DNA of 64,000 nucleotides from sequence record LC680885.1; one strand, written 5' to 3'. Source of the DNA: Staphylococcus phage S6. The notes beneath the pieces are model-generated. The model was not told the DNA's origin. It made no database searches and worked only from the letters and a program-made list of their open reading frames with translations. Every line of letters starts with the position of its first letter. Position 1 is the first letter of the stretch. Positions 10,644 through 55,828 of the stretch are shown in pieces. The translations under genes were made by a program, and so were the position numbers.

Positions 10644-10710
10644 TATATTTTCCTCATTTCTATTTATTTTATTAATATTAATGTGTTAAAATAATGATTT
10701 ATTAAAAATA

Positions 10711-10739
10711 ACCCTAACCAAAGTATAAATGGTTAGGGT
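10711..10739 (-). terminator. terminator hairpin ACCCTAACCA/TGGTTAGGGT
   Basis: 10-bp inverted repeat just downstream of the stop of the RNAP beta-like gene (minus sense), with an A-run on the plus strand before it. Confidence 0.55.
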
Positions 10740-10747
10740 ATATAATA

Positions 10748-13700: not shown

Positions 13701-15001
13701 TGCATATAAGAGATATCAAAATCATTAGAAGCAATGTTATTAATAGTCTCTTCATTGATATTATTAATATTTTCATTAATTTCTCTATCGATTAATTTAT
13801 CTTCAGAAAAACTAAAATCTTCTAAATCATTAAGGTATTCATCTTGTTTCTTAGATAAAGCTAATATCTTTTTAGTATTTTTAAGAGCTTCATCACCAAT
13901 GCTAGATTTATTTTTAATATTTCTTTTAATTGATTTAAATGAATCATTCTTGTCTAATACATCTGAATATAAAGTTTCTGTATCAATATCAATTAAATCT
14001 TTATTATCATTTAATTCTTTTTCAATTATCATAGCTATATTATATTCATCATCAACATCCATTTCAGTATTGTCTAATGATCTAATATAACTTATTGTAG
14101 AATCTATTTTATTAGATATTTTTTCTAACTGTTCATCATTTTCATATTCAACTTCATCATTCTGAGCTTCGATAGGATCAATTGTTCCTACATTATCAAA
14201 TGCTTTCTTTTTAATTACTCCATCTACAGCTTCAGTATTATCATCATCTTCAACTTTACTAATTTCATCAGTATCCAATGCTTGTGTATTAGTGTCAATG
14301 ATTCTTCTTAATCTTTGTCTAAGTCTCATATTAAGTTTATTATAATCTTTGTAATCAAATTTAAACATTATTCCATTATCTAATGAGACAAATAATAAAT
14401 CAACATTTTGATTTTCACCATGAGGTAATTCTTCTTGATTCTTAATCATCATGAATAAGCTTGACATGAAATCTTTTGTATTAGGTCTAATAGCTTGTTG
14501 AGAAGGTTTATTATATCCATCAACATTAATTACATAAAGTAAATTATTATAATCTTCTGTATTATTTAAAGAGTTAAAAGTTGATTTAATTGAATTTAAT
14601 ACTGTATTAAAGTTTTTAGTCATTAATGATTTATCTTCTAAATCAATAAATTTAGTTGAATCAACAATATAGTTTCTACCTTTAAATAATTTCTCATTTC
14701 TTTCAACTCTATACTGTTTATAAGATTTAGATTTAATTTCTTTTTGATAATCTGTTATATTCGTTAATAATCTAGTTCTTCTATTTTGAGTTCTATACAA
14801 TCTTGGTGTATAGATATTCTTGAAATTCTGATGATATAATAATCCACTATTTAAGAAATCAGTAAATGAATTTTCTTTAAAACCTTTATAAATAACTAAC
14901 TGGTCTTTTTTCTTATCTTTGATTTCTTCATCAATAGCTTTAATTTTATATCCAGATATTGAATAGAATTTAAGATTTTTTAATCTATTAAGATATTTCA
15001 A
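10748..15001 (-). CDS. multisubunit RNA polymerase beta-like subunit (non-canonical, phiKZ/AR9-type split RNAP), carrying conserved regions D-H
   Basis: 1417 aa. GPAGRNSE...ISTPDSNKVGIVRQLS aligns to bacterial beta GPGGL...ETPEGPNIGLINSLS. ADSPRIGMTGTQAKHLI aligns to ANRALMGANMQRQAVP. SSYGTYEDS aligns to GYNFEDS. GDKISFYGACKTVIA...PYAEYRPDEEIEAIFSPLSIVSRM aligns to GDKMAGRHGNKGVIS...[22 protein letters not shown]. No GEME region I after this point. About 350 aa of extra N-terminal sequence. Confidence 0.7.
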   Translation of the reverse strand: MKYLNRLKNLKFYSISGYKIKAIDEEIKDKKKDQLVIYKGFKENSFTDFLNSGLLYHQNFKNIYTPRLYRTQNRRTRLLTNITDYQKEIKSKSYKQYRVERNEKLFKGRNYIVDSTKFIDLEDKSLMTKNFNTVLNSIKSTFNSLNNTEDYNNLLYVINVDGYNKPSQQAIRPNTKDFMSSLFMMIKNQEELPHGENQNVDLLFVSLDNGIMFKFDYKDYNKLNMRLRQRLRRIIDTNTQALDTDEISKVEDDDNTEAVDGVIKKKAFDNVGTIDPIEAQNDEVEYENDEQLEKISNKIDSTISYIRSLDNTEMDVDDEYNIAMIIEKELNDNKDLIDIDTETLYSDVLDKNDSFKSIKRNIKNKSSIGDEALKNTKKILALSKKQDEYLNDLEDFSFSEDKLIDREINENINNINEETINNIASNDFDISYMQKTFNKDFIDIMKSFNDNEDIPVFINKMNIEDNSDSQSLKNTVKVQFRSPDGLTHNVKFDVPKVIDGKYMKLNGGKKVLTKQLMMWPIVKYKPDTVWITTNYNKFIIEKFGYKENAETEWIKKVIEDDQVIDYIENKSNLSVKKGNASLINNKYVTSVIYNSLSRNILNFQDGTNVLEFNQRSLLGMISDSASLSKIDYDQDKYFPIGYNINKSKLILADKTESVMYECSKSNIKSMEVNIFDYIIDKLDNEVDFGVIDKKFSKNIQSNKTMAFSRVKITNKLVPTILLLGFYKGLTNILDLYEVDYKFTTENERISIHDKKNKIKFQDGYLIYSTDKLRFDLLMSGLTVLPTSQYNFSDFETETPYLEYFNDKFYSRNVGKGIKNTMDLAMDPITKEVLRDLKLPDNMVELLLLANTMLEDVSARDHNDMGIYRVRGPEQINALLYKMMANAYKEYSDSYNNKNPKNISVKQDQLIKTIMEQPTVDEVSDLNPNLEIDKMTSVTFKGPAGRNSEQSYEPDIRSYDESMQGILGISTPDSNKVGIVRQLSYDTQIKSTRGYTDGSKKDVSDTALYTPLELLNPYTSRHADSPRIGMTGTQAKHLIATKTNDRPLVGSGVDKSLAYQISDTFAFKAKEDGKVTSVNEKTGLMLVEYINGDKDVIDISEKLAKNSNGGFYQNNKLTPQFEVGKKFNKGQVLAKNDSYFAGSGSNNDIQFAAGKLSKVAVASSYGTYEDSSIISNSMSEAMSTKVTMKKTVNLASSTNIQYIVKEGQNVRTGDPLMIFENSFDDEGIGSLLDKIGSEFEQEIQDISNRAVRSKYTGEIKKVNIYYNDDIENMSPTLAKLVNSYINKSKSKYREYKNAVKDNKSTLPGLDVDIPAVEKINSEKIKGEKVDGVLIEIFTEYEDDMSIGDKISFYGACKTVIADVTPPNESPYAEYRPDEEIEAIFSPLSIVSRMTTDIYLMLATNKALIELKRKVKDML

Positions 15002-15461
15002 TTATGCCATTCCTTTCCGTATTTAATTTTATTGATTAATATATTTATATTACTTTTATTTTATAATATTATTCAATAAATTTCCTATATACAATAGTTT
15101 TGATTACTATCATTATGTATTTTAATTGGATTTATAAAAATAAAATAACGAACTATGTGAGTTATTTTTAAATACATTTTTATGAAATAAAAATGTGTAC
15201 TATCCCCTCATAATATTTTAATTTATATAAATATACTATAAGAATAGTATATTTATTATTATAATATTTTATTATAATATAATTATAATATTCCGGACAC
15301 TTTCAAATTTTTTATCACATAATGGTACAAATTTATAATTTTTTAAATAATTAATATAAAAATATTTATTAACTTCATACATATTGTTTAATTATATAAA
15401 AATTATAAAATACTCAGTAACATCTAAATATCAATAAAATAATGAAAGAAGTGAAAATAAA
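15002..15461. promoter_or_regulatory. AT-rich divergent intergenic region between the RNAP beta-like gene (minus) and the beta-prime-like gene (plus); presumed divergent promoters
   Basis: 460 bp with no ORF, over 85% AT, containing repeated attataat-type tracts. Genes diverge on both sides. Confidence 0.4.
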
Positions 15462-16688
15462 TTGGCTAATATGAATTATGAAAATAAAACACTTAATGAA
15501 AAAGAAGTATCGACATTATTAAGTGTTGGTAAAGATGACATTACATTAGACAAGTTAAAAGAATTATTTGCTTTTAGACAAAATACAGAACCAATGTATA
15601 ATCCAACGGATAAATTTACATTAAAGAAAGATCTAGTCTATAATAAAAAAGATGAAAAAACTACTGTAGGTAGATATATATTTAATAAATTTATTTTAGA
15701 TAATAAAATTGGACCGATTATAGGCTATATGAATCGTGATATGGGCGGTTCTGGAGTAGGTAAACTTCAATCTGATTTATCAAATTTATTACTTAATGAT
15801 ATTATTACTACACAAGAAATGTCAAATTATATCGATAAATTACAATGGTTAGGTTTCTCTATAGCCAGTTTTATTAATTCTAGTCTAACTACTACAATGA
15901 TGACTGCTACTGAAAAAGTTAAACAGAAAAAAGAAGAGTTATTAGTTAAATATGAAAAAGCATTGAATACTCCTGGAGAGGAATTAAATGCAATATCAGT
16001 TATTGAAAAAGAATTAATCAATTTAAGTAAAGAAGAATTAAAAGGTTTAGCTGATTTAGATATTTATGATAGTGGTTCACGTGGTTCATTCGGCAATAAC
16101 TATAAATTAACTGCATTAATTCGTGGAGCAAATAAAAACTTTGCTGATCCAAGTAAAATTAGAATTGCTAAAAGCTCACTAGCTGAAGGAATTGATCCTA
16201 ATGAACTTTATATGTTTGGAGATATTATGACTGCAGGTTCAGCTGGACGTGCACTAGGTACTCAAGAAGGAGGGTATCAGGCTAAGCAACTAATGTCGGC
16301 CTTCCAAACAACTGTTTTAGATAAAAAAGGTTCTGACTGTAGAACAAATCATTTCCTTAAATTAATATTAGATAAATCAAACGCATCATTAATGATGTAT
16401 AGATATTTTAAAGATAATAACGCAAGATCAGGTCAATTAGTTTTATTAACTCCTGAAAATGTAGATGATTACATGGGTAGAGTTTTAGAATTTAGAAGTC
16501 CTATGTATTGTGCAAGTGAAGATATTTGTAGTAAATGTGCAGGAGAATTACCATATAAATTAGGAATTGAAAATATTGGTCTATTAGTTAACCAAGTTGC
16601 TCAAGCAATCGTAACAAGTTCAATGAAATCTTTCCATGATATGACGATTAAACAAAATGAAATAGATATAGAAAGTTATATAGAATAA
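15462..16688 (+). CDS. multisubunit RNA polymerase beta-prime-like fragment (regions F-G, trigger-loop region), non-canonical split subunit
   Basis: 408 aa. KTTVGRYIF aligns to beta-prime DTTVGRAIL. IYDSGSRGS aligns to MMADSGARGS. LAEGIDPNELYMFGDIMTAGSAGRALGTQEGGYQAKQLMSAFQTTVLDKKGSDCRT aligns to [54 protein letters not shown]. The start may be TTG at 15462 or ATG at 15471. Confidence 0.65.
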   Translation: MANMNYENKTLNEKEVSTLLSVGKDDITLDKLKELFAFRQNTEPMYNPTDKFTLKKDLVYNKKDEKTTVGRYIFNKFILDNKIGPIIGYMNRDMGGSGVGKLQSDLSNLLLNDIITTQEMSNYIDKLQWLGFSIASFINSSLTTTMMTATEKVKQKKEELLVKYEKALNTPGEELNAISVIEKELINLSKEELKGLADLDIYDSGSRGSFGNNYKLTALIRGANKNFADPSKIRIAKSSLAEGIDPNELYMFGDIMTAGSAGRALGTQEGGYQAKQLMSAFQTTVLDKKGSDCRTNHFLKLILDKSNASLMMYRYFKDNNARSGQLVLLTPENVDDYMGRVLEFRSPMYCASEDICSKCAGELPYKLGIENIGLLVNQVAQAIVTSSMKSFHDMTIKQNEIDIESYIE

Positions 16689-16826
16689 CATAGATAGGAT
16701 AACAATCATTAAATTGATTGTTATCCTTATTTTATTGGATTAAATCGTTCTTTAAATTTATATTATAATTATGAGGTGAATGATGTGTATTAATGTGATA
16801 TACTTATAATTATAAAAATAAATTTA

Positions 16827-18920
16827 ATGGAGATGAAATGGATAATGTTAGGTAAAGAAATAATGAGAAGATCTGAAATAATTTACGATGATACGGATAT
16901 AAAAACTGTTTTAAATTTAGATCCGGATAAAGATTACATAAATGAAGAAGAGGATATCGAATATATCTGTCCTAAACATGGTAAACAAAAAAGAAAAATA
17001 AAACAACATTTAGAAAAGAAAGGTTGTTTCGAGTGTCAATACGATAATAAGTCTAAAAAGACTAAAGGTAAAGATTTATTAGGAGAGTTTTACAAAAGAT
17101 TTGGAGAAGATGTTTTTGATTATCCAGATATAGAAGAAGATCGTGTATATTCATCTAGAGAAAAAATAAAGATAGTTTGTTTTAAACATGGAGAGTTCAC
17201 TAGACAAATTAGAGAACATAATACAAAAGCTAAAATATGTGATAAATGTAAATTAGAGGATGGAGGAAAAGATTTTAAAAAGAAACAATTTAAAGAAAGA
17301 TTGAGAAATGAAAATTATGAAATGTATAAGATTACCGATTTTTCTGAGACTGTATTTGAAGGGTTAACTAATTTTATGTATGTTAGATGTAAAAAACATG
17401 ATACGATTAACAAAATACAACCTAGATCATTACTAAGTAAGAATAGTAATGGGTGTTCAAAATGTAGAAGTGAAAAACTATTAAAAAGTAGAAGATCTAA
17501 TAACAAGGTATATAACGTGGAAGATATTTTTAACATATATAAACAAAAAGGAAATCTTTTAAATACTGCGACTAAATATCTTGAAAATTTAAATCTCGAA
17601 CAAAGAAAAGAGTTATTCTTAATGATATCCAAACATAATTTTGGAAATAAGTATGACTATTCTTTAATAGAAAAAGAAAAAAATAATTTTAAATCTAGAG
17701 ATAAAGTAACACTAATATGTAAAGAACATAATGTCGAATTTAAACAAAATATATCACACCACTATAAAGGTAGGTTAGGTTGTGATAAGTGTAAAAAGGA
17801 TAATGTGTCTAAAAGTATATCTGACTCATACAGATTTTCTAAAAGAACAGATATAAAACCTGAAGAATTAATAAAAGAAGTGGATAATGAAAATTTCAAA
17901 GATAATGAGATAAGAAAAATAGTGAGATTAATGAATTTTGAAGATAAAGGAAAATATTACAGATTATTAGGGAAAAAGATTAAGGGAGATAAATATAACT
18001 ATGATAAATTAGTGTATAACGGTGATAGTGTTCAGGTAACTATAACATGTAAAAAACATGGAGATTTTAAACAGGTAATATACGATCACTTTTTCCAAGA
18101 TCATAATTGTAATAAATGTTCAAAGATCGTATCCAAACAAGAACTTAAATTAAGTAATGATTTGGAAAAATATTTTACAGTTAAAAATTCTTTAAGAAGA
18201 ATATTTGAGGATAAAAGAAAAGAAATTGATATATTTATCAAAGATATTAATTTAGGTATAGAGATAAATGGTCTAAGATGGCATTCAAATGATATAAAAA
18301 AGGAGGATGAAAATAATTTTGCAAGATACCATCAATTTAGTAAAATGAATGAATCTGAATGTTTAGGTATAAAATTATTAAACTTCTATGACGATGAAAT
18401 AAATATAAAGAAAAATGAAATTTCTTATTCTAAAATAATGAAAGAAATTTTATTATTTAATAATTCCTTTAATATTAAAAATATAGATTTAAAAGATTTA
18501 GAGATGAAAAAGATATCTTATAATTTCATAAAGAAATTTTATAAGAAACATTCACTAGAATTCTTTAATGAAGAAGATAAAAATTATAGAGGAATATTCT
18601 ATAAAGGTTATATAGTTTCCGTATTCTCATTTAATAATAAGAACGAATGTCATAACTATAGCACGAATTACAATTTAAATGAAGATATTGATTTAATATT
18701 AGATGCTTACCCTAATACCATTTTTAATATTAGATCAGATTCTTATAATAGATATAAATTTCAAGATTATGGGTTCATTACAATAAATAAAACTCTACCG
18801 CAATATAGAAATTTCAATAAAAAAGGTTTAACTAAAAATAGATATAAAAGATTAGAAAAGAGGGATACTAATAATCCTAATAGAATTTATGATTGTGGTA
18901 GAACTATCATGATTTACTAA
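16827..18920 (+). CDS. homing-endonuclease-like protein with five tandem CxxH...CxxC zinc modules and C-terminal Vsr/DUF559-like PD-(D/E)xK nuclease domain
   Basis: 697 aa. Modules ICPKHG...GCFECQ, VCFKHG...ICDKCK, RCKKHD...GCSKCR, ICKEHN...GCDKCK, TCKKHG...NCNKCS. C-terminus IDIFIKDINLGIEINGLRWHS...ECLGIKLLNFYDDEI resembles Vsr (FVVDEYRCVIFTHGCFWHH...ELGWRVLIVWECAL). The start may be the ATG at 16845. Confidence 0.55.
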   Translation: MEMKWIMLGKEIMRRSEIIYDDTDIKTVLNLDPDKDYINEEEDIEYICPKHGKQKRKIKQHLEKKGCFECQYDNKSKKTKGKDLLGEFYKRFGEDVFDYPDIEEDRVYSSREKIKIVCFKHGEFTRQIREHNTKAKICDKCKLEDGGKDFKKKQFKERLRNENYEMYKITDFSETVFEGLTNFMYVRCKKHDTINKIQPRSLLSKNSNGCSKCRSEKLLKSRRSNNKVYNVEDIFNIYKQKGNLLNTATKYLENLNLEQRKELFLMISKHNFGNKYDYSLIEKEKNNFKSRDKVTLICKEHNVEFKQNISHHYKGRLGCDKCKKDNVSKSISDSYRFSKRTDIKPEELIKEVDNENFKDNEIRKIVRLMNFEDKGKYYRLLGKKIKGDKYNYDKLVYNGDSVQVTITCKKHGDFKQVIYDHFFQDHNCNKCSKIVSKQELKLSNDLEKYFTVKNSLRRIFEDKRKEIDIFIKDINLGIEINGLRWHSNDIKKEDENNFARYHQFSKMNESECLGIKLLNFYDDEINIKKNEISYSKIMKEILLFNNSFNIKNIDLKDLEMKKISYNFIKKFYKKHSLEFFNEEDKNYRGIFYKGYIVSVFSFNNKNECHNYSTNYNLNEDIDLILDAYPNTIFNIRSDSYNRYKFQDYGFITINKTLPQYRNFNKKGLTKNRYKRLEKRDTNNPNRIYDCGRTIMIY

Positions 18921-19160: not shown

Positions 19161-19233
19161 TGTCCCATAGCTCAACGGTAGAGCGATCGGCTGTTAACCG
19201 GTTTGTTGAAAGTTCGAATCTTTCTGGGACAGC
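19161..19233 (+). tRNA. tRNA-Asn (anticodon GTT)
   Basis: Cloverleaf: acceptor TGTCCCA/TGGGACA, U8, D-arm GCTC-AACGGTA-GAGC with GG, anticodon stem ATCGG/CCGGT, loop CTGTTAA, T-arm GAAAG-TTCGAAT-CTTTC, discriminator G. No encoded CCA. Confidence 0.8.
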
Positions 19234-29746: not shown

Positions 29747-31258
29747 ATGGTAAAAAAAGCAGATAACAATGAACTTAATGATTTTATGTCTGAAGAAGAA
29801 TTAAATGAAGTTAGTCAAGGTTCTTCTAATAATGATGAGAAACAAGAACAGAAACAAAGTACTCAAAAACAACAACATAATAAAAATAATCAAGGTAATA
29901 AAAAGAAAAATAACAATCGCAGAAGAAATAATAATAAACATAATCAACAAGATAAGAAACAAAATCAAAATAGCAAATCAGCAATTCCAACTCAAAGAAA
30001 CAAAGACAATCAAACTATGATGAGTGCTAGTGTTGATAGTGATAATCAACAAGAACAAGCTAAAACAGATCATATTAATTTAGATGGTCCTCAACCAGGC
30101 GAAGGTTTTGTTGACTATGAAAACTTAACTTCATATGGATTTAATGAAGGAAAATCAAATGAAGATACTTCTAGCATGACATTATCTGATTTTGAAGAAC
30201 AACAAGAACAAAAAGCTAAAAAAGATTATGAAAATCAAAAAGCTATTAGTGAAATTGAAAGTATTAGCAGTGATGAAAGAGCTAATCTATTAAATAATAT
30301 TAATGTAGATTTAGATAATATTGAAATTATTTCTGACATTGATTATGATATTGATAAAGAAAACACTAATTTCGTATTAAATAGTAAAGCAACTCATCAA
30401 GTTGTATTACCACAATCAGCATACATTGCTCATATGGAAAGTTTACGTAACCAAGAGATTTTATCTATTGCTGAATCTATTGATGATGATTACAATGCAA
30501 TGTTAAAACGTTATCAATTATACTTCCATAAAATGAATACAAATTCATTAGGAATTAATAACTTCCAAGATTTCGCTAGATTAACTTCTGTATATGATGT
30601 TAGTACTATTGAATACGGATTATACAATATTTCATTCCCTGGTGAAACTAAATTTGATATTAGATGTGGTAGCTGTAAAGCTGAATTAAAAGACGTTAAA
30701 GTTTCTAATGATCAATTAATGTCATTTAAAGATGAAGATGCTTTCGATCATGTTACTAAAAATGTTAAGAATATCACTAGTGTTGATGAAAATAAAGAAC
30801 ACTCATTAATTTATACTGAACAACGTATTGCTTTAAGAGATTCTAAAATTATCTTTGAAATTGTAACACCTACTGTTGAAAAACACTTAAGAGTTTTAGG
30901 TAGTATCCATATGGACGGTTTAACTGAAGATGAATCAGAAAGATTTAAACAAAATGCCACAGCTTTAATGCATGTTAAAAATGTTTATATCCCTGACTTA
31001 AAAACACTTAAAGAAGGACAAAAACCTAAGTTCCGTAAATTAAGTGAAGATAACATGAAAGATAAAATGAAAATTATTGAAAATCTTTCTATTCGTGATG
31101 GACATCAATTAACTGATGCTATTTATGATCGTGTTAATAAACATGCTATTGAATATGCTATTAAAGGTGCAAACTGTCCTAATTGTGGAGAAGATTTAGG
31201 TAAAATTGATATTGACATGAGTGAAATGCTTTTTCGGGAAGCGCTGCATTTGGTTTAG
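29747..31258 (+). CDS. hypothetical protein with long Q/N/K-rich low-complexity N-terminus
   Basis: 503-aa ORF immediately after the gp25-like gene. Confidence 0.55.
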   Translation: MVKKADNNELNDFMSEEELNEVSQGSSNNDEKQEQKQSTQKQQHNKNNQGNKKKNNNRRRNNNKHNQQDKKQNQNSKSAIPTQRNKDNQTMMSASVDSDNQQEQAKTDHINLDGPQPGEGFVDYENLTSYGFNEGKSNEDTSSMTLSDFEEQQEQKAKKDYENQKAISEIESISSDERANLLNNINVDLDNIEIISDIDYDIDKENTNFVLNSKATHQVVLPQSAYIAHMESLRNQEILSIAESIDDDYNAMLKRYQLYFHKMNTNSLGINNFQDFARLTSVYDVSTIEYGLYNISFPGETKFDIRCGSCKAELKDVKVSNDQLMSFKDEDAFDHVTKNVKNITSVDENKEHSLIYTEQRIALRDSKIIFEIVTPTVEKHLRVLGSIHMDGLTEDESERFKQNATALMHVKNVYIPDLKTLKEGQKPKFRKLSEDNMKDKMKIIENLSIRDGHQLTDAIYDRVNKHAIEYAIKGANCPNCGEDLGKIDIDMSEMLFREALHLV

Positions 31259-31552: not shown

Positions 31553-31846
31553 TTGGTTACTAATACTAAAGATAGTCAGAAAATCCTTCATATTTATGAT
31601 TCTCTTGTTGAAGATGATGATAATATTTTATCATCTCTATGTCATTCTAATAAAGGTTTAGTATTTGTAAATCTTTTATATGACCTAGATTATAAAATTA
31701 AAGAAGGATTTTCTAAGAACTATAATGAATTTGATTACATTATTTTGGAAACAGAAGATAAAGAAAAATTAAAAGAAAAAGTTTCATATATAAAAAATTT
31801 AAAATTTGAAGACAACAAGAATAGTATAAGAATTTCAATTGTATAA
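31553..31846 (+). CDS. hypothetical protein
   Basis: 97 aa. TTG start with AGGAG at -13. Confidence 0.45.
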   Translation: MVTNTKDSQKILHIYDSLVEDDDNILSSLCHSNKGLVFVNLLYDLDYKIKEGFSKNYNEFDYIILETEDKEKLKEKVSYIKNLKFEDNKNSIRISIV

Positions 31847-31863
31847 AGTGAGGTCTAAAAAGA

Positions 31864-33606
31864 ATGTTAGATAAGAATAAAGAAAAGAAGAAATTAGTTT
31901 CAAATATTGTAGATGAGGATTCATATAAAGATATAGCTGAATTAACTATTGATACTATTTCAAATACGTTAATGAAATCATTAGGTTATTTCGGATCTAC
32001 AACTATTTTTGATGATGGTATTAGTAGATATGTAACTAAAGACGGTTATAATATCCTAAAAAATATTAGATTTCAAGATACAATCGCTACAGCTATTTTG
32101 AATTTTATTAAAGAAGTATCGTTATCACTAGTTAAATCAGTGGGAGATGGATCAACTTCATCAGTAATTAACTCACAAGCTATGTTTAAAGAAATTAATA
32201 AAAGACTAAAAGAAAAAGATGATTTAGGTGGATATTCTCGTAAAGAAATTTCTGATTCATTAAATAATATGAAAGAATTAATTTCTAAAGAATTAACTTC
32301 AAAATCTACTAAAATTGATCAAGATAATTTCCATAAATTAAAAAATATCGCTACAGTATCTAATAATAATGATGAAAAATTAGGAGAAATGGTTTATGAA
32401 ATTTTCTCTAAAATTGGTAATAAAGGTTTTATATTCCCTGAAGTTTCTGATAATGAAGAAGACCATTATTCATTAACTAGAGGTATTGAAACACCACATG
32501 CATTATTAGATAATAAATTAATTAATAATAAAGATGATCATTCAGTTGATTTTAGTAAACCTTATGTAGTTGTTGTTAATGATAAACTAACTGAAGAAGA
32601 TATTGTATGGACATCAAATATTATTTCTAAAGTTAAACCGTTCTCAGGACAAGGATTAATATTCTTTGCTCCAGCTTTTTCTAAAGAGTTTAAAGATTAT
32701 ATTAAAAATAATTTACATGCTAATAGAAATAATGGTTCATTACAAGCAGTTGAAACTGACTTTGAATTATCTATTGGTTCTCATTATCATGATCCAGAAA
32801 AATTAGAAGATTTAGCTATATATACAGGTGGTTCTATTATTGATAAAACTATGGAAAAAGAAGATTTCTATAAACAAGTTGAGTCTATTGTAGAACTTCC
32901 TGAAAATGACCCAGAATGGTTATTATTTAAAGAAACTGTAATTGGTAGAGCTGAAAGAATTACTATTGATAATTTTAAAACACAAATTATTAATGGTTAT
33001 GGTAATGGTACTCAAAAACTTAAAGATAGAATTTCAGAAATTAATAATGAGATAACTTATTATACTGATATGAATTCAGATCAAGCTATTACAGCTATTA
33101 CTGATTTACAAAAACGAGCAAATTCTTTAAATAATGCTATTGCTAAATTATACGTTGGTGGTTCTTCTCAAGCAGAAAAAACTTCTAGACTATACTTAGT
33201 AGAGGATTCAGTGCATGCTTCTAAATCTGCTTTAGAATACGGTTATGTATCTGGAGGTAACTTATCAGTAAATAAAGTTATTAAAAATATCAATAGAGAC
33301 GTTTTAAGTGATTTAGATAATCTAACATTAGATTTAATTGATATATCTTCAAGAGAAGTTTATCATAAAGTATTAGAAAACTTTAATAGATTTAGTTCGG
33401 GAGAAATTGAATCTATCACTCAAACTTGTATAGATAAAGATGCTATATTGAATATTAAAAATAATGAATATGAAGATGATGTTAATACAGATATTATCAA
33501 CTCAGTAGAGACAGATATCAAAATATTAGAAACAACTATTAGTATTATAGGATTGATTTCACTAAGTAACCAATTCTTAACTAATTCAGTCATTATTCCA
33601 CAATAA
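31864..33606 (+). CDS. GroEL-like chaperonin (Cpn60 family)
   Basis: SLGYFGSTTIFDDGISRYVTKDGYNILKNIRFQD...VGDGSTSSVIN aligns with GroEL [35 protein letters not shown]...AGDGTTTATVLA. Length 580 aa. Confidence 0.7.
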   Translation: MLDKNKEKKKLVSNIVDEDSYKDIAELTIDTISNTLMKSLGYFGSTTIFDDGISRYVTKDGYNILKNIRFQDTIATAILNFIKEVSLSLVKSVGDGSTSSVINSQAMFKEINKRLKEKDDLGGYSRKEISDSLNNMKELISKELTSKSTKIDQDNFHKLKNIATVSNNNDEKLGEMVYEIFSKIGNKGFIFPEVSDNEEDHYSLTRGIETPHALLDNKLINNKDDHSVDFSKPYVVVVNDKLTEEDIVWTSNIISKVKPFSGQGLIFFAPAFSKEFKDYIKNNLHANRNNGSLQAVETDFELSIGSHYHDPEKLEDLAIYTGGSIIDKTMEKEDFYKQVESIVELPENDPEWLLFKETVIGRAERITIDNFKTQIINGYGNGTQKLKDRISEINNEITYYTDMNSDQAITAITDLQKRANSLNNAIAKLYVGGSSQAEKTSRLYLVEDSVHASKSALEYGYVSGGNLSVNKVIKNINRDVLSDLDNLTLDLIDISSREVYHKVLENFNRFSSGEIESITQTCIDKDAILNIKNNEYEDDVNTDIINSVETDIKILETTISIIGLISLSNQFLTNSVIIPQ

Positions 33607-33614
33607 AACTTATT

Positions 33615-33654
33615 GCCGAAACCATTTGAACATTAATGGTTTCGGCTTATTTTT
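33615..33654 (+). terminator. terminator hairpin GCCGAAACCATT/AATGGTTTCGGC plus T-run
   Basis: 12-bp perfect stem, 8-nt loop, followed by ttatttttgtg. Confidence 0.7.
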
Positions 33655-33775
33655 GTGAATATAATTATCTTAATAATCTTTTTTACAAAATTAGATTTTT
33701 ATGATTTTTTATTTGCTTTTTTGCTAATTTTTTGTTATAATTAAAAATATATTAAGTAGGAGGAATTATATAAAA

Positions 33776-34625: not shown

Positions 34626-36359
34626 TTGGATAAAGTTAAAGAATTAGAGTACAAAGAGGATTTAGATTTAAAAAAGATTGATGAATTAGTTAATAATGAC
34701 GTGGAAGTACCCCTATTATCTAGTAATGTCAATAAGCTTAAAAGAGTCTCTGGTAATTTTGAATTAACTAATGAATACATTAATTCTAAAGACTTAGATA
34801 CACTTGAAAGAAAAAATAAAAATGGTAAAATTGAATTGGAGTACATACAGAGAACAGATATTCTACCATTAGTTAAATTTATTGAAAGTGAAAAGAATGA
34901 TACTATATTTATAGATTTCAATAAGATATTAGAAACTGATAATCGTAAAGTACCTAAGGATGAAGAGTTTGATAATATATTTACTATTCAAATTAAACAA
35001 AGATCTTACAAGAGTATTTTAGATTATATTGTAAATGATATGAATTTTATAGTTAATGAGATTCCTCACATAATGATTAAAGGTGCTACTATATTAAGTA
35101 AGATAGCTAAATTAAGAGAGAATTATAAAGAAGAAGATTTCTTCAGAGATATTCAGAATATTATTGAAGATGAAGATTTAAGAAATGTTATTAGAAATAT
35201 TGTTGATAATAACTATACAATTAATTTAGATCAAACTAATGCTGAAGCTATGTTACAAAGTAAGAAAGTTATTAAGAGAGATTTACAAGTAACTGACCAA
35301 GTAAATAAATCATTCTTATCTACAGCTGTAATGCAAAGATTTATTATTCCGTTTATTAGTCAATATTATGTAACTACCAATAAGTATCATTGTGAAAATT
35401 CTGATGCAGATAAGGAAAGAACTAAAAATGGTTACTTTAAAGCATTTAATTATTGTATGTGTATTTCTTCATTCGATTATAATGTAAGTAATAATAATAA
35501 ACTTTATAAAATTGTAGAACCTAAAGTAATCAAAACAAAATACAATGATAGAGTTATCTGGAGATTCTTAGATTTACGTTCAATTGACCCTGACACTGTT
35601 ATTAATAAAATAATGGATAAAATCATTAGACAAATTGTATGTAAATTATTAGTAGATACTTCTGCAGTATCTTACTTTACGTCTGTTATTAAATTCTCAA
35701 TCGATTATGAATTTCAGTACAAATATCCAATTAAGTTTAGATCAATACGTTTATCTACAGATGATGACGATGATGAAGATAGCTTCGATAAATTCCAAAT
35801 GAATAACTTCCATAAAGTTAATGAACGTTTAGATTTAGCTAATAAAATCACTATTGATAGATTTATTAATGAACGTTTAGAAGAATTAAATATTAGTGAT
35901 GATTACATTAATCGTTTATATGATAAATTTGATTATATTAATGACTTACAATCTCATTTAATTAAAGTTTATTTTGCTGAATACTTTAACGTTAATACAA
36001 ATGATAGAAAGAGCATTGTTTCATTACTGGCTATTATGTCTAAAGAACTTATTGATAATAATATGGAAACTTTAGGAAAAATAGTAGCAAGTAAAGTTGT
36101 TTCAGGTACAAAAGCTAAAAATGTAGGTAAATTATCATTAGACGTAATTGCAGATAAATATTATATTGCTGCTTGGGATAAATATAGATTTATCAATGAT
36201 ATTACTGAAAAAGATAACTTTATCTTACGTATAGCATTAGTAAATGGATATTCATTTAACTTCACTCCTGAAGATAAAGAAGAAGATGAAGAAGTTATTG
36301 CTGATATTGATAAGAAATACTTTATCTCTGAAGTATCACAATTTATTTCTCAATACTAA
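34626..36359 (+). CDS. hypothetical protein
   Basis: 577 aa. TTG start with AGGAG at -10. Confidence 0.55.
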   Translation: MDKVKELEYKEDLDLKKIDELVNNDVEVPLLSSNVNKLKRVSGNFELTNEYINSKDLDTLERKNKNGKIELEYIQRTDILPLVKFIESEKNDTIFIDFNKILETDNRKVPKDEEFDNIFTIQIKQRSYKSILDYIVNDMNFIVNEIPHIMIKGATILSKIAKLRENYKEEDFFRDIQNIIEDEDLRNVIRNIVDNNYTINLDQTNAEAMLQSKKVIKRDLQVTDQVNKSFLSTAVMQRFIIPFISQYYVTTNKYHCENSDADKERTKNGYFKAFNYCMCISSFDYNVSNNNKLYKIVEPKVIKTKYNDRVIWRFLDLRSIDPDTVINKIMDKIIRQIVCKLLVDTSAVSYFTSVIKFSIDYEFQYKYPIKFRSIRLSTDDDDDEDSFDKFQMNNFHKVNERLDLANKITIDRFINERLEELNISDDYINRLYDKFDYINDLQSHLIKVYFAEYFNVNTNDRKSIVSLLAIMSKELIDNNMETLGKIVASKVVSGTKAKNVGKLSLDVIADKYYIAAWDKYRFINDITEKDNFILRIALVNGYSFNFTPEDKEEDEEVIADIDKKYFISEVSQFISQY

Positions 36360-46654: not shown

Positions 46655-46677
46655 AGAAAGAGAGTTGAAAATAGTAA

Positions 46678-49665
46678 ATGGCTATAACACAGTATTTCTC
46701 TAACGAACAAGAGAAAATAGATTTCCTTAATAATGCTAAAATAGATACTGAAAGCGTTATTAAGATAGGAAGTACTTCATACGATGTCAAAGATAAATGG
46801 TTCAATATGGCAACTAAGTTCTTTGAAATTGATACAGAAAATACTCCTATAGATGAAAATGAAGATGAAGATTTAATTTCATTATTAAAAGCTGGATTAT
46901 TTGGTTATATTAATGAAATTAATTCACATGAAGTTAAAAACGCTATATATCACAGAAATGTATTATACGATGAATTATTCTTGAATACAGCTTCTATTCC
47001 TATGTCTATATACAATTTTGCTAAGTTGTATAATGTACCTATTCAAATGGCTAAACCTGCTAATTTTAAAGTAGATTTTGTTATTAGAAAAGATGATGTA
47101 TTAAAATTACCTTCTAAAGAGATTGTATCTACTCAAGAAATAGATAAAAAGAAATCATTAAAAACTTATGAGATAAAATTATCTAAGGATCAAGATTTTA
47201 CAATAGGTAGTTTTAAATATTGTTTACCGTATGATGTATCAATGGTATTAAAACAATATCCAATAACTAGAGATGGAAAAGATGCAATAGATTATAAAAT
47301 TACAGCTAGATATGATATAGATAACGATCTATTTAAATTTTCTTCTATTTTAGATAATAATGTCAAAGTAACTAAGAATATAATAAATGGTGTAGATTAT
47401 ATGTATTTCTCTCTAGATCTATACCAAATAGAAAGAATTTCTAAAGAATTTAATATAACTAGCAATGATATTGCTGAAAATATTTACTTCAATGTTGGTT
47501 ATGAAAATCAATTAGCTGGTTTTAATGTATTCTATGAATACTTAGGTACAAGAACACCTATGGAAACTTATTTTAATAATACTTTTACTCCAGATACAGA
47601 TAATCCTTTCTGTTATTATAATTTCAAAGATGATAATTCATTAGAAATTTCATTCTCAAACATGGCTAATTCTTTTAGACCTAAAGCTAATAGCAAAGTT
47701 ATTGTAGAAACTTTAACTACTAAAGGTGAGAAAGGCAACTTTAGTTATAATGATAATTTAAATGTAGCGTTAGATTCTAATAACACATTTGAAAAAGTAC
47801 CAATAACTATTCTTCCTAAAGGTAATTCAGTTGATGGTCAGAATAGACCGGATGTTTATACTGAAAAAAGAAGAATAATTAATAAAGCTATTACTAGAGA
47901 TAATATTATTACTGACTTTGATATTAAAAACTATTTTAATGATGTTAATGACAATAATAATATTAATAATTCTTTTATTAACTTCATTAAAAAACGTAAT
48001 GATCTTTATACACGTATGTATAATGCTTTCTTATTATTAAGAGATAGTGATAGTAAGGTAATGCCTACAAATACTGCTCCTTATATAGAACTTCCTAAAC
48101 AGTATTTTGAGGGAAATACTTCATTAGGTAATGAAGAAGATGGTTATGTAATACCTGAGAACAGTTTATTCAAATATGATCAAGATAGTAAAAAATACGT
48201 TCACATTGAAAAAGGTTTAGATGATGCTGATGAGAAAGAAAAATTTGAAAAAGATAAAGATTCTTTATATTATGTAAATCCTTATTTAATTAAAATTAAT
48301 AAATATCCTTTCTTATCTACTAACTATTATAAACTTCATGTAAATGAACTATTTACTACTGAATATAAATACATTAATGAATTAATACCTAATAATATTA
48401 CAACTACCGATTTATATGTAGAAAAATTAAATGACTTCAAAAATACTTTGGAATCAGATACATTTAAATTTAGTTTAGAAATTGGTATGGACAGTTCACT
48501 TCAAGAAATGAAAGACTTATTAAAAGTTAGAGCTGTATTATTATCTCAAGAAACTGGTGAAAGATACGGTTATTTTGAATTAAATCCGGAAGAAAGTATT
48601 GAATCTGAAAATAATATTATTGATGAGTCAGATTCAACTGTAGATAAATCTTCTTTATATTCAGGAATGATATCTACTAATAGATCTTTCCATAATGGTA
48701 AATTATCTATAACGGATTCACTTTATAATGATAAAGGTATAGTACAAGATAATGTATTTATAGATGAAAAATTTGTAGTCAAAGTAGGATTACTATATAA
48801 AGATGAAGATATGAGATATTTCAATGATCTTGATATATCTGATGAAATGAATTTCTTTAAAGATGAATTCCCTAGTCATAGAGATGATGAAGTTAGAGAT
48901 TATACATTGGCTTGTTCTATGGAAACTTTTGAAGGAGTATCTATATACAAAGACATGTCACATGTAATGAATAGTACAGTATCTATGACTGATGACAGTT
49001 GTAAAGTAGAATTAGTTCCTTTATTCTCATTAGGATACTTTATGAATAATTATGAAGAAGTTTATAGCGTATTAGAAGGATATAAAGAAATATTAGAAGA
49101 TGCTATACCTAGATTACAAAATAACACTAGTATAGATATGAAGCTTTATAATACTAAAGGACCTTCTAATAATTATTATCTAGATACTGAATTAGACGAT
49201 GATAATTTAAATAATAAATATATCTCTAGAACGGATATACTATTGGATTTAAATATCACTCTATATGCACCTATTAATGATTTCTTAGATGGAGAAATTA
49301 AACGTTATATTTCTGATTTTGTAGAAGCATGTAATGAAAAAGGTGTATTACCTATATCTAACTTAATTAGATTATTAGAACAAAACTTCGATATAATCAA
49401 GTATATAGTATTTAATGGTATTTCTGGTAAGTATGCTGAAAAAGTAGACAACCATTATCAAAAACTACTTAATACTAATATAAACTATATGGATCTAAGT
49501 AAACAAGAAATTATTGAATACGTTCCTGAATTTATTAATATCAAAAAATCTCTTAAAGATAATAAGGTTGAAGTGAGTAATGAAGATTCAGAGGATGGAA
49601 CAACGGTTATTGATTTAGGTTTATCTTACGATGATGTAGTTAATATAACTTATTCAATCTCATAA
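46678..49665 (+). CDS. hypothetical large protein (possibly structural)
   Basis: 995-aa ORF, 24 nt after the previous gene. Confidence 0.55.
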   Translation: MAITQYFSNEQEKIDFLNNAKIDTESVIKIGSTSYDVKDKWFNMATKFFEIDTENTPIDENEDEDLISLLKAGLFGYINEINSHEVKNAIYHRNVLYDELFLNTASIPMSIYNFAKLYNVPIQMAKPANFKVDFVIRKDDVLKLPSKEIVSTQEIDKKKSLKTYEIKLSKDQDFTIGSFKYCLPYDVSMVLKQYPITRDGKDAIDYKITARYDIDNDLFKFSSILDNNVKVTKNIINGVDYMYFSLDLYQIERISKEFNITSNDIAENIYFNVGYENQLAGFNVFYEYLGTRTPMETYFNNTFTPDTDNPFCYYNFKDDNSLEISFSNMANSFRPKANSKVIVETLTTKGEKGNFSYNDNLNVALDSNNTFEKVPITILPKGNSVDGQNRPDVYTEKRRIINKAITRDNIITDFDIKNYFNDVNDNNNINNSFINFIKKRNDLYTRMYNAFLLLRDSDSKVMPTNTAPYIELPKQYFEGNTSLGNEEDGYVIPENSLFKYDQDSKKYVHIEKGLDDADEKEKFEKDKDSLYYVNPYLIKINKYPFLSTNYYKLHVNELFTTEYKYINELIPNNITTTDLYVEKLNDFKNTLESDTFKFSLEIGMDSSLQEMKDLLKVRAVLLSQETGERYGYFELNPEESIESENNIIDESDSTVDKSSLYSGMISTNRSFHNGKLSITDSLYNDKGIVQDNVFIDEKFVVKVGLLYKDEDMRYFNDLDISDEMNFFKDEFPSHRDDEVRDYTLACSMETFEGVSIYKDMSHVMNSTVSMTDDSCKVELVPLFSLGYFMNNYEEVYSVLEGYKEILEDAIPRLQNNTSIDMKLYNTKGPSNNYYLDTELDDDNLNNKYISRTDILLDLNITLYAPINDFLDGEIKRYISDFVEACNEKGVLPISNLIRLLEQNFDIIKYIVFNGISGKYAEKVDNHYQKLLNTNINYMDLSKQEIIEYVPEFINIKKSLKDNKVEVSNEDSEDGTTVIDLGLSYDDVVNITYSIS

Positions 49666-49703
49666 AAATAAAATTATAATATAAAGAAAGAGGTATAAAT
49701 ATA

Positions 49704-50684
49704 ATGGCTAAAACATTTATTTCTGATTACCGCAAAAAACAAGCTGGTTTAAATAGAAAAGCAGCTAATGCTTTAGAACAGAAAAAATACACTGATCAAA
49801 TTAATGAAGAATTAGAAGTTTCAAAAGAGAAAGATTTAATTGCAGGTAGAAATAATAAATTACGTGCAACTAACAAGAAAGCTATTGATAATGCTAAAAA
49901 TAAATCAGAAAGAGAATTAAAAGACTTAAATGCACAAACTATTATGACTACTTTATTCTCAGCATTAGTATTTAATACTTTCCCTAACAAAATTGCTGAC
50001 AAATCTAAATTACGTGAGAAAATTGTTTCTAAAAGTAGAATGTTCTTTAATGAAGCAATTAATGCAGAATTAGCTGACTATCAAGGTAGTGAAGTATTCT
50101 CTAACGCTAAATTTAATGCAGACGTGTACGCTAAAGATGCTCGTGGAGTTATTGATCCTAAAGACTCTATTAAAGGAGCTAAAGTAGTATACAAAAAAGG
50201 TAGAACTGAATTCGATTACCTAACAAATGTAGTCGCTAAGAAAATTGAATCAGCTGTAATTCGTGAATCTGAATTAGTTGATGTTCGTGAAAAATTAAAC
50301 GAAAGCTTAGCAGACACACATAAAAAGAACAATAAAACACTATTCCGTACTTTACATGAATCAGCTATTAATAATATTGTAAATGATGAAGCTTATCTTA
50401 ATGAAGAAATTTCAGCAGAAGAAGTTAACATGGATGCTTTAGTAGAAGCTACTTTAGATTATACTATTATGGAATTAATCCATACAGCTAAATTGAGCAC
50501 ATTCAATATGGGTGAAGTTCAAAAAGCTGTTAAGAATGGTACAATTAAAGTTAATACTAAACAAAATAGTAAAATAAAACCTGAAAATGGTTCTACTAAA
50601 CCTTCAGCTGATGGAGTTAAACCTAGAACTATTGAAAATGAAAATAAACCAAAATCAGGTTCTGTTAAGTTAAACGAAGAATAA
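49704..50684 (+). CDS. hypothetical protein
   Basis: 326-aa ORF. Confidence 0.55.
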   Translation: MAKTFISDYRKKQAGLNRKAANALEQKKYTDQINEELEVSKEKDLIAGRNNKLRATNKKAIDNAKNKSERELKDLNAQTIMTTLFSALVFNTFPNKIADKSKLREKIVSKSRMFFNEAINAELADYQGSEVFSNAKFNADVYAKDARGVIDPKDSIKGAKVVYKKGRTEFDYLTNVVAKKIESAVIRESELVDVREKLNESLADTHKKNNKTLFRTLHESAINNIVNDEAYLNEEISAEEVNMDALVEATLDYTIMELIHTAKLSTFNMGEVQKAVKNGTIKVNTKQNSKIKPENGSTKPSADGVKPRTIENENKPKSGSVKLNEE

Positions 50685-50700
50685 AAAAAAATAATATAAA

Positions 50701-50733
50701 TCCCCCTAATACTAAATTAATAGTATTAGGGGA
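50701..50733. terminator. bidirectional terminator hairpin TCCCCCTAATACTA/TAGTATTAGGGGA
   Basis: 13/14-bp inverted repeat between convergent genes with A-run before and T-run after. Confidence 0.65.
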
Positions 50734-50739
50734 TTATTT

Positions 50740-52494: not shown

Positions 52495-52506
52495 TCTCCG
52501 TTACTA

Positions 52507-53658: not shown

Positions 53659-54025
53659 CCTTTGCTAAAAAGTCTATCATCTTCATAAGTGTTTCTTTTA
53701 CATAGTCTAAACTTTTATAAGTTGCTTTATCGTCTTTCATCATTAAATTGTTGAAATATATTTCTGGAGACAAATCATCTATTAAGTGACAACAATCAAA
53801 ACCAATTATTCCATTATTATCATACGTAATTCCACCATGAGAATAATATTCAACATCTTTATCATAATTATCTCCAACTTCAATATAGCCATTTAAAAAT
53901 CCTAAATCATGTCTGACTATAAATGCTTTATAACCTTTATATTCAAATTCATACTTATTCTTTCTAACTCCAAGTATTTTATCTTCTTTTTCTATAATAT
54001 GTTTAAGTGTATCAGCATCAATCAT
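53642..54025 (-). CDS. hypothetical protein
   Basis: 127 aa. Overlaps the previous gene by 17 nt. Confidence 0.45.
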   Translation of the reverse strand: MIDADTLKHIIEKEDKILGVRKNKYEFEYKGYKAFIVRHDLGFLNGYIEVGDNYDKDVEYYSHGGITYDNNGIIGFDCCHLIDDLSPEIYFNNLMMKDDKATYKSLDYVKETLMKMIDFLAKDDENE

Positions 54026-54030
54026 TTTGT

Positions 54031-55752: not shown

Positions 55753-55828
55753 TTAATTAGAGTCAATCAACTTAATCAATAATAGTTGATTGACTCATAT
55801 TTATGAAAGAAAGGAGAACTGAAGTAAT

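Follow-up and report, generated by a model that had tools for sequence, protein, structure and literature searches.

The closest well-described system to the one examined here is gp228 of Bacillus phage AR9, a single-ring heptamer that uses ATP to refold an endolysin and needs no co-chaperonin (PMC9598537). Two other phage-encoded, GroEL-like proteins, gp246 of Pseudomonas phage OBP (PDB 6tmt) and gp146 of phage EL (PDB 6hdd), are also reported to be co-chaperonin-independent (PMC9598537). The GroEL of Staphylococcus jumbo phages has itself been discussed (PMC10638138; bioRxiv 10.1101/2020.12.14.422802; PMC9414953), and in phage SA1 the ortholog is a late gene (PMC9414953). A preliminary description of a 64,000-nucleotide stretch of phage DNA, the whole of which we refer to as the window, had proposed a chaperonin of this kind. 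We conclude that the gene is real, was correctly interpreted and is already known; the finding is correct but ordinary, because the gene has already been annotated and published and because an orthologous chaperonin is described from AR9.

The coding sequence runs from an ATG through the stop codon at 31864..33606 on the plus strand and encodes 580 aa, as listed among the open reading frames. Reading the sequence directly, we found a Shine-Dalgarno motif, GAGG (31850..31853, plus strand), 10 nt 5' of the ATG, and the MarsHill annotation places a ribosome-binding site at the equivalent position; the stop codon of the preceding ORF lies at 31844-31846. Starting 8 nt past the chaperonin stop codon is an intrinsic-terminator-like hairpin (33615..33656, plus strand), with a 12-bp stem containing six G-C pairs and an 8-nt loop followed by TTATTTTTGT. 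The hairpin is palindromic, such that the minus strand also scores, and a terminator is annotated at the equivalent place in MarsHill. A scan for sigma-70-type promoters was uninformative (51 sites vs 61.7 expected), which is unsurprising because the phage uses its own RNA polymerases. The ORF is a complete, genuine gene that looks expressed, and not a chance reading frame. The two Cpn60-type motifs attributed to the 580-aa product of 31864-33606, TKDG and VGDGSTSSV, are both present, each exactly once.

Profile and sequence searches identified the product as a chaperonin. Pfam PF00118 (Cpn60_TCP1) matched with 60.1 bits (E=2.2e-16), against a gathering cutoff of 34.3 bits, in two stretches of which the best covers aa 32-247, and the same family is precomputed on all 46 of 46 database homologs. 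Coverage was broader with PHROG 5725, 'chaperonin groEL' (320 bits, E=4.6e-95; aa 11-575 on profile positions 3-534 of 540), with the NCBIfam GroEL models (aa 22-575, E=1e-41 to 1e-52) and with PDB GroEL chains (aa 26-569, E=4e-32). The resemblance to Cpn60/TCP-1 is thus not confined to the short motif noticed initially, since profile, PDB and fold matches span the full length. The canonical GroEL level was not reached in the same searches, either by the equivalog model TIGR02348 (161.1 bits vs a cutoff of 582.1) or by the best subfamily model, NF009487 (177.4 bits vs 352); across the NCBIfam GroEL models, scores of 142-177 bits compare with curated cutoffs of 352-582.

Two other origins were considered and rejected. 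An affinity to group II chaperonins (thermosome/CCT) fails on score, with 30.1 bits vs 450 for thermosome_alpha and 19.8 vs 587 for CCT zeta; both matches are confined to the N-terminal ~130 aa, and PDB CCT chains gave E values of 0.04 or worse. Recent capture of a host groEL is incompatible with ~20-22% identity to bacterial GroELs and with scores far under the NCBIfam cutoffs, and is also opposed by the DC4 peptides, which have no match in the host proteome (PMC10638138). We conclude that the protein is a phage-encoded GroEL-type chaperonin.

Structure prediction gave a concordant picture. The AlphaFold2 monomer model (pLDDT 86.7, pTM 0.80) returned 557 Foldseek matches in the PDB at E<=1e-3, with E values down to 2.8e-33 and ~570-580 aligned columns, and the best 50 of the 557 were all group I chaperonins. 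With TM values normalised by the length of the PDB chain, the model scored 0.74-0.81 against open, apo or single-ring states of GroEL and mtHsp60 (4ki8, 9shk, 2cgt_H) and lower, ~0.60-0.63, against GroES-capped subunits. No AR9-type chaperonin sequence turned up in the PDB copy searched. The model is therefore one of a three-domain chaperonin subunit, with predicted equatorial, intermediate and apical domains.

We then mapped residues onto E. coli GroEL with MAFFT, at 22% identity, and scored conservation in a family alignment of 36 sequences. The N-terminal part of the equatorial (ATPase) domain (31864..32307, plus strand; aa 1-148) corresponds to GroEL 1-133. Within it, SLGYFG (aa 39-44) aligns with GroEL T30-G35 and carries a tyrosine, Y42, in place of P33; TKDG (aa 58-61, nt 32035-32046) falls on K51-D52-G53. 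VGDGSTSSV (aa 93-101, nt 32140-32166), which the preliminary description had aligned with AGDGTTTATV, falls on G86-D87-G88-T89-T90-T91, the nucleotide-binding loop, including D87. Residues G41, G44, K59, D60, G61 and G94-T98 (GDGST) are invariant among the 36 sequences. The intermediate domain follows in two segments. Its N-terminal segment (32308..32478, plus strand; aa 149-205 = GroEL 134-190) contains a conserved ATVSNNND stretch (GroEL I150/S151), and its C-terminal segment (33142..33237, plus strand; aa 427-458 = GroEL 377-408) carries the catalytic aspartate D448, equivalent to D398, within VEDSVHA (nt 33199-33219), again invariant in the family alignment. In the C-terminal part of the equatorial domain (33238..33603, plus strand; aa 459-580), SGGN (aa 463-466) aligns with GroEL G414-G416, with asparagine replacing G416, and N530 aligns with N479; G464/G465 and N530 are invariant or nearly so across the 36 members. 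A further substitution, N546, replaces D495.

The equivalents of K51/D52, D87 and D398 are conserved, and the pocket for nucleotide binding and hydrolysis is intact, with three departures from GroEL: a tyrosine at P33 and asparagines at G416 and D495. Those three substitutions, which lie within the nucleotide pocket, could be taken to mean that the protein is a degenerate, ATPase-dead homolog serving solely as a passive holdase or scaffold, and a capacity to suppress aggregation in the absence of ATP has been reported for phage chaperonins (PMC9598537). We consider this very unlikely. The equivalents of D52, D87 and D398, the GDGxT loop and G414/G415 are invariant across 36 diverged homologs, which points to selection on the pocket, and AR9 gp228, an ATP-dependent refolding chaperonin (PMC9598537), also carries G416N and D495N. 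The third position does distinguish the two proteins, as AR9 gp228 keeps P33 where Y42 is found here.

The apical domain (32479..33141, plus strand; aa 206-426 = GroEL 191-376) is less like that of GroEL. In the alignment at 22% identity, where apical equivalences are possibly a few positions off, GroEL Y199, Y203, F204, L234, L237, L259, V263 and V264 correspond to L, K, L, S, I, K, K and N. Five of these eight GroES/substrate contacts of helices H and I are polar or charged, or six of nine when S201, replaced by D, is counted. The equatorial domain differs as well: the inter-ring contact segment E461-V464 is deleted in the aligned protein, which ends ...SNQFLTNSVIIPQ and has no C-terminal GGM-repeat tail.

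These features bear on whether the protein might instead cycle as a conventional double-ring GroEL with the GroES of S. aureus, boosting host chaperonin capacity during infection. The host does encode GroES, the catalytic residues are intact, and the nearest solved structures are bacterial GroELs (4e-32). Set against this are the scores of 142-177 bits relative to cutoffs of 352-582, 22% identity to E. coli GroEL, the polar or charged residues at six of nine helix H/I contacts, the missing 461-464 segment and GGM tail, and the single-ring, GroES-independent behavior of the AR9 ortholog (PMC9598537). Conventional cycling is accordingly improbable.

The apical domain also contains a low-confidence model loop (aa 290-299) and a clade-variable insertion at ~aa 329-352, near which the model places helices at aa 332-343 and 350-359. 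This inserted segment, which in the Staphylococcus subclade is long, varies among other AR9-type chaperonins or is missing from them. One role, which we regard as a long shot, would be that of a built-in partial lid or an extra substrate contact replacing GroES, analogous but not homologous to the helical protrusion found in group II chaperonins. If true, the partial-lid reading, together with the detection by LC-MS in virion preparations, would make the protein mechanistically distinct from AR9 gp228.

The preliminary description had also noted that phage chaperonins can act without GroES, and had left the presence of a co-chaperonin gene to be checked. A five-sequence GroES HMM, run against six-frame ORFs of at least 40 aa, found nothing better than E=0.44 in the window or E=1.9 in complete PALS_2; the same HMM recovered a Bacteroides-phage GroES at 5e-35, a control that was part of the profile's own training set. 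A phmmer search for GroES in the window likewise yielded no match (best E 1.8), and none of the 280 annotated features of PALS_2 (complete 268.7-kb genome) is a GroES. E. coli GroES had tblastn matches in 172 phage records, with Staphylococcus absent among the ten organism names listed. We conclude that the genome probably lacks a GroES-like partner gene, as no co-chaperonin gene was found in the window or in complete PALS_2. Action without GroES is consistent with these searches and with the co-chaperonin-free activity of the AR9 ortholog (PMC9598537).

A co-chaperonin without sequence similarity to GroES could escape such searches, and T4 gp31 is one that bears none. We therefore considered the adjoining upstream ORF of 97 aa (31553..31846) as an unrecognized, gp31-like partner. 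A small same-strand ORF lies directly 5' of the chaperonin gene in the window (97 aa) and likewise in AR9 (110 aa), and the ORF in the window shares both the operon position of groES and the length of GroES itself, 97 aa. But the two upstream ORFs have no detectable homology to one another (E=0.033), and the 97-aa product has no Pfam match, a weak match to a PHROG of unknown function, and homologs found only in Staphylococcus jumbo phages. Its predicted structure (pLDDT 75) combines four helices with four strands in a mixed alpha/beta fold and is no all-beta barrel; no fold in the PDB matched it at E<=1e-3, and neither GroES nor gp31 was among the 50 matches listed. AR9 gp228, moreover, is active alone in vitro (PMC9598537). 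The predicted fold largely refutes a co-chaperonin role for this ORF, which we rejected as a GroES/gp31-like candidate on sequence, homolog range and fold model. That the chaperonin works with an unrecognized phage-encoded co-chaperonin is extremely doubtful.

BLASTP aligned the chaperonin collinearly with AR9 gp228 (aa 13-573 vs 5-557) with 292 bits, E=5e-96 and 35% identity. A neighbor-joining tree built from the available sequences, with EL gp146, OBP gp246 and S. aureus GroEL left out, clusters the protein with AR9 gp228 and separates the two from E. coli GroEL and from a Bacteroides-phage GroEL linked to GroES. An eight-gene order around the chaperonin is common to the window, MarsHill and AR9: endonuclease, baseplate wedge, hypothetical, 66-aa ORF, small ORF, chaperonin, hypothetical and nvRNAP subunit. 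The matching genomes range from 224 to 275 kb. As judged by sequence and gene order, the protein is an ortholog of AR9 gp228 and a member of the AR9-type lineage.

The reading that we favor, with high confidence, is that of a phage GroEL-like (group I-type) chaperonin, orthologous to AR9 gp228, that would provide ATP-driven, co-chaperonin-free refolding late in infection as a single heptamer. By reference to the AR9 ortholog and to sister-phage data, the protein would be made late and would form a ring, most probably of seven subunits in a single layer. ATP binding and hydrolysis would drive the holding and refolding of phage proteins, for example endolysin, with virion or RNA-polymerase subunits as possible further substrates. 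Refolding would presumably occur in a cavity that stays open, with no co-chaperonin to cap it, and phage protein folding would thereby no longer depend on host GroES/GroEL. This proposal extrapolates the oligomeric state, the ATPase activity and the substrates from an AR9 ortholog of 35-37% identity.

Compared with its counterparts in Staphylococcus jumbo phages over the full 580 aa, the protein is 100% identical to UFVDC4_00086 ('groL5') of UFV_DC4, 99.8% to PALS2_266 of PALS_2, 98.6% to CPT_MarsHill_179 of MarsHill and to its Madawaska counterpart, 95.7% to that of LY01, 89% to SA1 ORF239 and 75% to that of Machias; the ortholog carries a GroEL annotation in MarsHill, Madawaska, Machias and SA1. 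The window DNA is identical to no single record, and is 98.8% identical to PALS_2 over 20 kb. The assignment to a jumbo phage stands, as the window is 93-99% identical to the 259-269 kb PALS_2, UFV_DC4, MarsHill, Madawaska and LY01, and the chaperonin gene confirms it as an AR9-like Staphylococcus jumbo phage.

LC-MS of purified DC4 virions detected five peptides, covering 11% of the identical protein (PMC10638138), and the chaperonin protein is therefore made. The same peptides raise the possibility that it is packaged, delivered with the genome and active at the start of infection. The DC4 authors caution that chaperones are carried along when virions are purified and that packaging is still to be confirmed (PMC10638138), an assembled ring of ~455 kDa would be expected to co-sediment with particles, and late transcription of the SA1 ortholog (PMC9414953) is compatible with either reading. 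We consider a packaged virion protein most unlikely.

Phage chaperonins are more widespread than the preliminary description allowed in calling them rare and known mainly from a handful of jumbo phages: of 50,697 phage records, 218 had tblastn matches, among them Cellulophaga and Maribacter phages of 72-77 kb, which are not jumbo. Approximately 40 metagenomic relatives, several on contigs >200 kb, indicate that the AR9-type lineage is broader than cultured phages suggest. The value of the present gene as a discovery is small, an identical protein being already deposited as GroEL. There is a practical opportunity, as the literature holds no Staphylococcus-phage chaperonin that has been purified or studied biochemically; recombinant characterization would bring a clinically relevant host into the small group of viral chaperonins characterized as co-chaperonin-independent.

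Compared with known systems, the protein shares with E. coli GroEL (22% identity) a three-domain fold and the conserved residues K51, D52, D87, D398 and G414/G415. Unlike bacterial GroEL, it has no adjacent or genomic groES, its GroES contacts are replaced, and it lacks both the inter-ring segment and the GGM tail; in Bacteroides phage DAC19, by contrast, a GroES-like gene is followed by a GroEL-like gene. OBP gp246 and EL gp146 are more distant in phmmer searches (62 bits, 4e-16, and 21 bits, 1e-3) than bacterial GroELs (93-115 bits), so that 'phage chaperonins' do not form a single tight family. The AR9 gp228 group, which also includes PBS1, vB_BpuM-BpSp, Goe21 and Internexus, and Listeria phage LPJP1 (39% identity, full-length collinear) share with it PHROG 5725, the pocket variants G416N and D495N, the lack of a GGM tail, a jumbo-phage context with multisubunit phage RNA polymerases and the same synteny block. 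Relative to AR9 gp228, whose oligomeric state and activity were measured, the Staphylococcus-phage protein is known here from sequence and model; it is 18 aa longer, mainly through the apical insertion and loops at aa 117-121 and 290-299, and has L214 and L219 where AR9 gp228 keeps Y199 and F204. With the GroELs of the Staphylococcus jumbo phages, finally, it is the same gene with the same neighbors, and nothing of substance differs.

A single 580-aa ORF occupies exactly window positions 31864..33606 on the + strand in the ORF list of the window, and it carries the chaperonin motifs TKDG (aa 58-61) and VGDGSTSSV (aa 93-101), just as the preliminary description had reported. A Shine-Dalgarno sequence, GAGG, lies on the same strand 10 nt 5' of the ATG. 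Starting 8 nt past the stop codon is a G+C-rich, perfectly palindromic hairpin (33615-33646) with a 12-bp stem, accompanied by a T-run. The hairpin scores as a terminator on either strand and, followed by a 130-nt untranslated gap, separates the gene from the next + strand gene. The G+C content of the gene, 25.4%, is in line with that of the window (22-32%). The gene is complete, with signals for translation and termination, and its product has a chaperonin fold.

The original reading of this product as a GroEL-like chaperonin is correct, as the Cpn60/TCP-1 match extends well beyond the short motif in profile, structure-database and fold searches alike. Pfam PF00118 scored 60.1 bits (gathering cutoff 34.3), PHROG 5725, 'chaperonin groEL', covered aa 11-575 (E=4.6e-95), and five NCBIfam GroEL models aligned nearly end to end (E=1e-41 to 1e-52). 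Using phmmer against PDB sequences, we matched 62 chaperonin chains, the top one being the bacterial 60 kDa chaperonin/GroEL 5da8 (4e-32, aa 26-569). An AlphaFold2 model built from a 36-sequence alignment had a mean pLDDT of 86.7 and a pTM of 0.80; the N-terminal 9 residues and the aa 290-299 loop were its only unreliable parts. Foldseek returned 557 PDB matches to this model at E<=1e-3, and all of the best 50 were group I chaperonins. TM-scores, normalised by PDB chain length, reached 0.74-0.81 against open, apo or single-ring subunits (4ki8, 9shk and 2cgt_H, the trans-ring chain of the gp31 complex), but only about 0.60-0.63 against GroES-capped cis subunits. The model therefore represents an open conformation.

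Across the 20 kb surrounding the gene, the window shares 98.8% identity with Staphylococcus phage PALS_2 (268.7 kb), 97.8% with vB_SauM-UFV_DC4, and 93-95% with Madawaska, MarsHill, and LY01. At the protein level, identity is 100% to the DC4 CDS 'groL5: 60 kDa chaperonin 5', 99.8% to the PALS_2 'heat shock protein 60 family chaperone GroEL', 98.6% to the 'molecular chaperone GroEL' of MarsHill and Madawaska, 89% to SA1, and 75% to Machias. The DC4 protein, listed as UFVDC4_00086 (GroEL, 580 aa), is made: five peptides (11% coverage) were found in purified virions, with the authors' warning that chaperones co-purify with virions (PMC10638138). The SA1 ortholog, ORF239, is transcribed as a late gene (PMC9414953), and a GroEL-like chaperonin was reported in all three of MarsHill, Madawaska, and Machias and tied to the AR9 protein (bioRxiv 10.1101/2020.12.14.422802). 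The gene is already annotated and published, and is a plain ortholog of a protein that has been characterised. A literature search found no biochemical or structural study of any Staphylococcus-phage chaperonin, and what value remains lies in that gap and in the apical insertion specific to the subclade of this protein.

Comparison with PALS_2 also revealed several features beyond the chaperonin gene. Window 11916-46658 corresponds to PALS_2 234019-268748 and window 46678-64000 to PALS_2 1-17323, with 19 nt (46659-46677) between the two record ends. The window crosses both ends of this linear record, so either the record was opened at an arbitrary point or the genome has circular permutation or terminal redundancy. 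About 460 bp (~10124-10585) have no PALS_2 counterpart, and the adjoining 1.3 kb (10585-11915) is 94.9% identical versus ~98-99% elsewhere; ~10124-11915 is an indel or a hypervariable spot in phages that are otherwise almost identical. The only tRNA in the window, a + strand tRNA-Asn (GTT) at 19161-19233, matches the one annotated in PALS_2. Two ~300-bp segments (1198-1494 and 2161-2457), ~85.6% identical to each other's PALS_2 counterparts, lie within PALS2_239/240, two neighbouring N-acetylmuramoyl-L-alanine amidase 'lysin' genes that encode paralogous lysins with a common domain. Outside the window, the annotation table gives PALS2_015 (PALS_2 24879-26381) as a 'retron-type RNA-directed DNA polymerase'; this jumbo-phage gene probably encodes a reverse transcriptase of the group II intron or retron-like kind.

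A database search with the chaperonin identified 46 proteins at E<=1e-10: a tight Staphylococcus subclade (67-100% identity), one protein at 45%, about 30 mostly metagenomic sequences at 31-39%, including Listeria phage LPJP1, and a few outliers at 23-27%. Contigs of 217-306 kb encode several of them. In an NJ tree the protein falls within the Staphylococcus subclade, itself inside an AR9/LPJP1-type clade, and a long branch separates it from E. coli GroEL and a GroES-linked GroEL from a Bacteroides phage. Phage chaperonins had been described as rare and known mainly from a handful of jumbo phages. They are indeed uncommon, with tblastn matching 218 of the 50,697 phage records, but they are more than a handful and are not confined to jumbo phages: Vibrio (74) and Flavobacterium (73) account for the largest groups, and Cellulophaga and Maribacter phages of only 72-77 kb are included.

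We mapped functional residues by MAFFT alignment with E. coli GroEL and gp228, the chaperonin of Bacillus phage AR9, and took conservation from 36 homologs. GroEL K51/D52 (K59/D60 in the phage protein), the loop G86-D87-G88-T89-T90 (G94-D95-G96-S97-T98), the catalytic D398 (D448), G414/G415 (G464/G465), and N479 (N530) are all conserved, and these positions are invariant in the homologs except for G465 and the nearly invariant N530. Judged by this conservation, the nucleotide pocket is under selection. GroEL P33 is replaced by Y42, whereas AR9 keeps the proline; G416 and D495 are replaced by N466 and N546, changes shared with AR9 and nearly invariant across the clade. Since AR9 gp228 depends on ATP, nucleotide use is unlikely to be lost through these clade-wide changes.

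Elsewhere the protein departs from GroEL. The apical helix H/I contacts read Y199L, S201D, Y203K, F204L, L234S, L237I, L259K, V263K, and V264N, equivalences that are approximate in an alignment at 22% identity. The stretch aligned to the inter-ring contact E461-V464 is deleted, and the C-terminus is without GGM repeats. By alignment, then, the GroEL features for association with GroES and a second ring are not conserved. The protein is longer than GroEL chiefly through loops at aa 117-121 and 290-299 and an apical insertion at ~aa 329-352, around which the model places helices at aa 332-343 and 350-359 (pLDDT 89-93 per 10-residue block). The Staphylococcus subclade has a long version of this insertion; in many AR9-type relatives it is short or missing.

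The preliminary description had also asked whether a co-chaperonin gene exists, and we found no GroES in the window or the complete PALS_2 genome. With E. coli GroES, tblastn found GroES-like genes in 172 phage records, and the ten organism names listed for them do not include Staphylococcus. A phmmer search of every six-frame ORF in the window with GroES produced nothing better than E=1.8. A GroES HMM of five sequences (E. coli, Listeria-type, Bacillus phage 0305phi8-36, Bacteroides phage DAC19, and Vibrio phage D82) reached at best E=1.9 against the 1,468 six-frame ORFs of PALS_2, with DAC19, itself in the training set, scoring 5e-35 as a control. The PALS_2 record has no GroES annotation, and neither the DC4 paper (PMC10638138) nor the MarsHill/Madawaska/Machias preprint (bioRxiv 10.1101/2020.12.14.422802) mentions one. 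A co-chaperonin of unrecognisable sequence encoded elsewhere in the genome is formally conceivable.

One candidate was attractive because it has the size and operon position of groES: a 97-aa ORF directly upstream (31553-31846, + strand; RBS AAGGAG, TTG start). It failed every test and we rejected it. It had no Pfam match and no real similarity to the small upstream ORF of AR9 (E=0.033), where a non-homologous 110-aa ORF fills the same slot, and its homologs occur only in Staphylococcus jumbo phages (79-98% identity). Its model, mixed alpha/beta with a pLDDT of 75, had no PDB neighbour at E<=1e-3, and neither GroES nor gp31 is among the 50 fold matches listed. By contrast, DAC19 and its relatives carry adjacent GroES-like (2001-2264) and GroEL-like (2278-3900; tblastn 1e-23) ORFs, both deposited as 'hypothetical protein' in DAC19, an under-annotated phage case with both partners.

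The closest characterised system is AR9 gp228, with which the protein is collinear at 35% identity (E=5e-96, aa 13-573 versus 5-557). The window, MarsHill, and AR9 share a gene order: a minus-strand Zn-finger endonuclease, a gp25-like baseplate wedge, a 400-500-aa hypothetical (PHROG 18873), a 66-aa ORF, a ~100-aa ORF, the chaperonin, a ~260-aa hypothetical (PHROG 20045), and a non-virion RNA polymerase subunit (PHROG 25005). The third gene (29747-31258, + strand) encodes 503 aa matching PHROG 18873, of unknown function, at 4.2e-80; its N-terminal third is long, low-complexity, and N/K/Q-rich, its C-terminal part is conserved, and its AR9 counterpart is a 398-aa hypothetical, syntenic between the baseplate wedge gene and the chaperonin. 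Two genes past the chaperonin, a 577-aa ORF (34626-36359, + strand) matches PHROG 25005, 'RNA polymerase' (1.5e-53), with no match in a Pfam search; its MarsHill and AR9 counterparts are annotated as non-virion RNA polymerase subunits, and such an ORF is characteristic of AR9-like phages that have split multisubunit RNAPs.

AR9 gp228 is a single-ring heptamer that remains open and refolds denatured endolysin ATP-dependently and without a co-chaperonin (PMC9598537). The S6 protein would likewise assemble into a ring, probably a single heptamer, and use ATP to bind and release non-native phage proteins in an open, lidless cavity, independently of the host GroES/GroEL system. Its substrates may include large late proteins and, plausibly by analogy with AR9, the phage amidase lysins. 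Chaperonin family and orthology to gp228, as indicated by similarity and synteny, are close to certain; a single-ring, co-chaperonin-free mechanism is fairly likely, and the overall reading, an AR9-type chaperonin working in this way, is highly probable.

No AR9-type sequence is present in the PDB copy searched with phmmer, since at ~35% identity it would outrank the bacterial match at 4e-32. The phage chaperonins that are there, OBP gp246 (6tmt, 62 bits) and EL gp146 (6hdd, 21 bits), score below bacterial GroELs (93-115 bits) and are much more distant from the S6 protein than bacterial GroEL is. 'Phage chaperonins' therefore comprise several lineages, and the S6 protein belongs to the AR9-type one.
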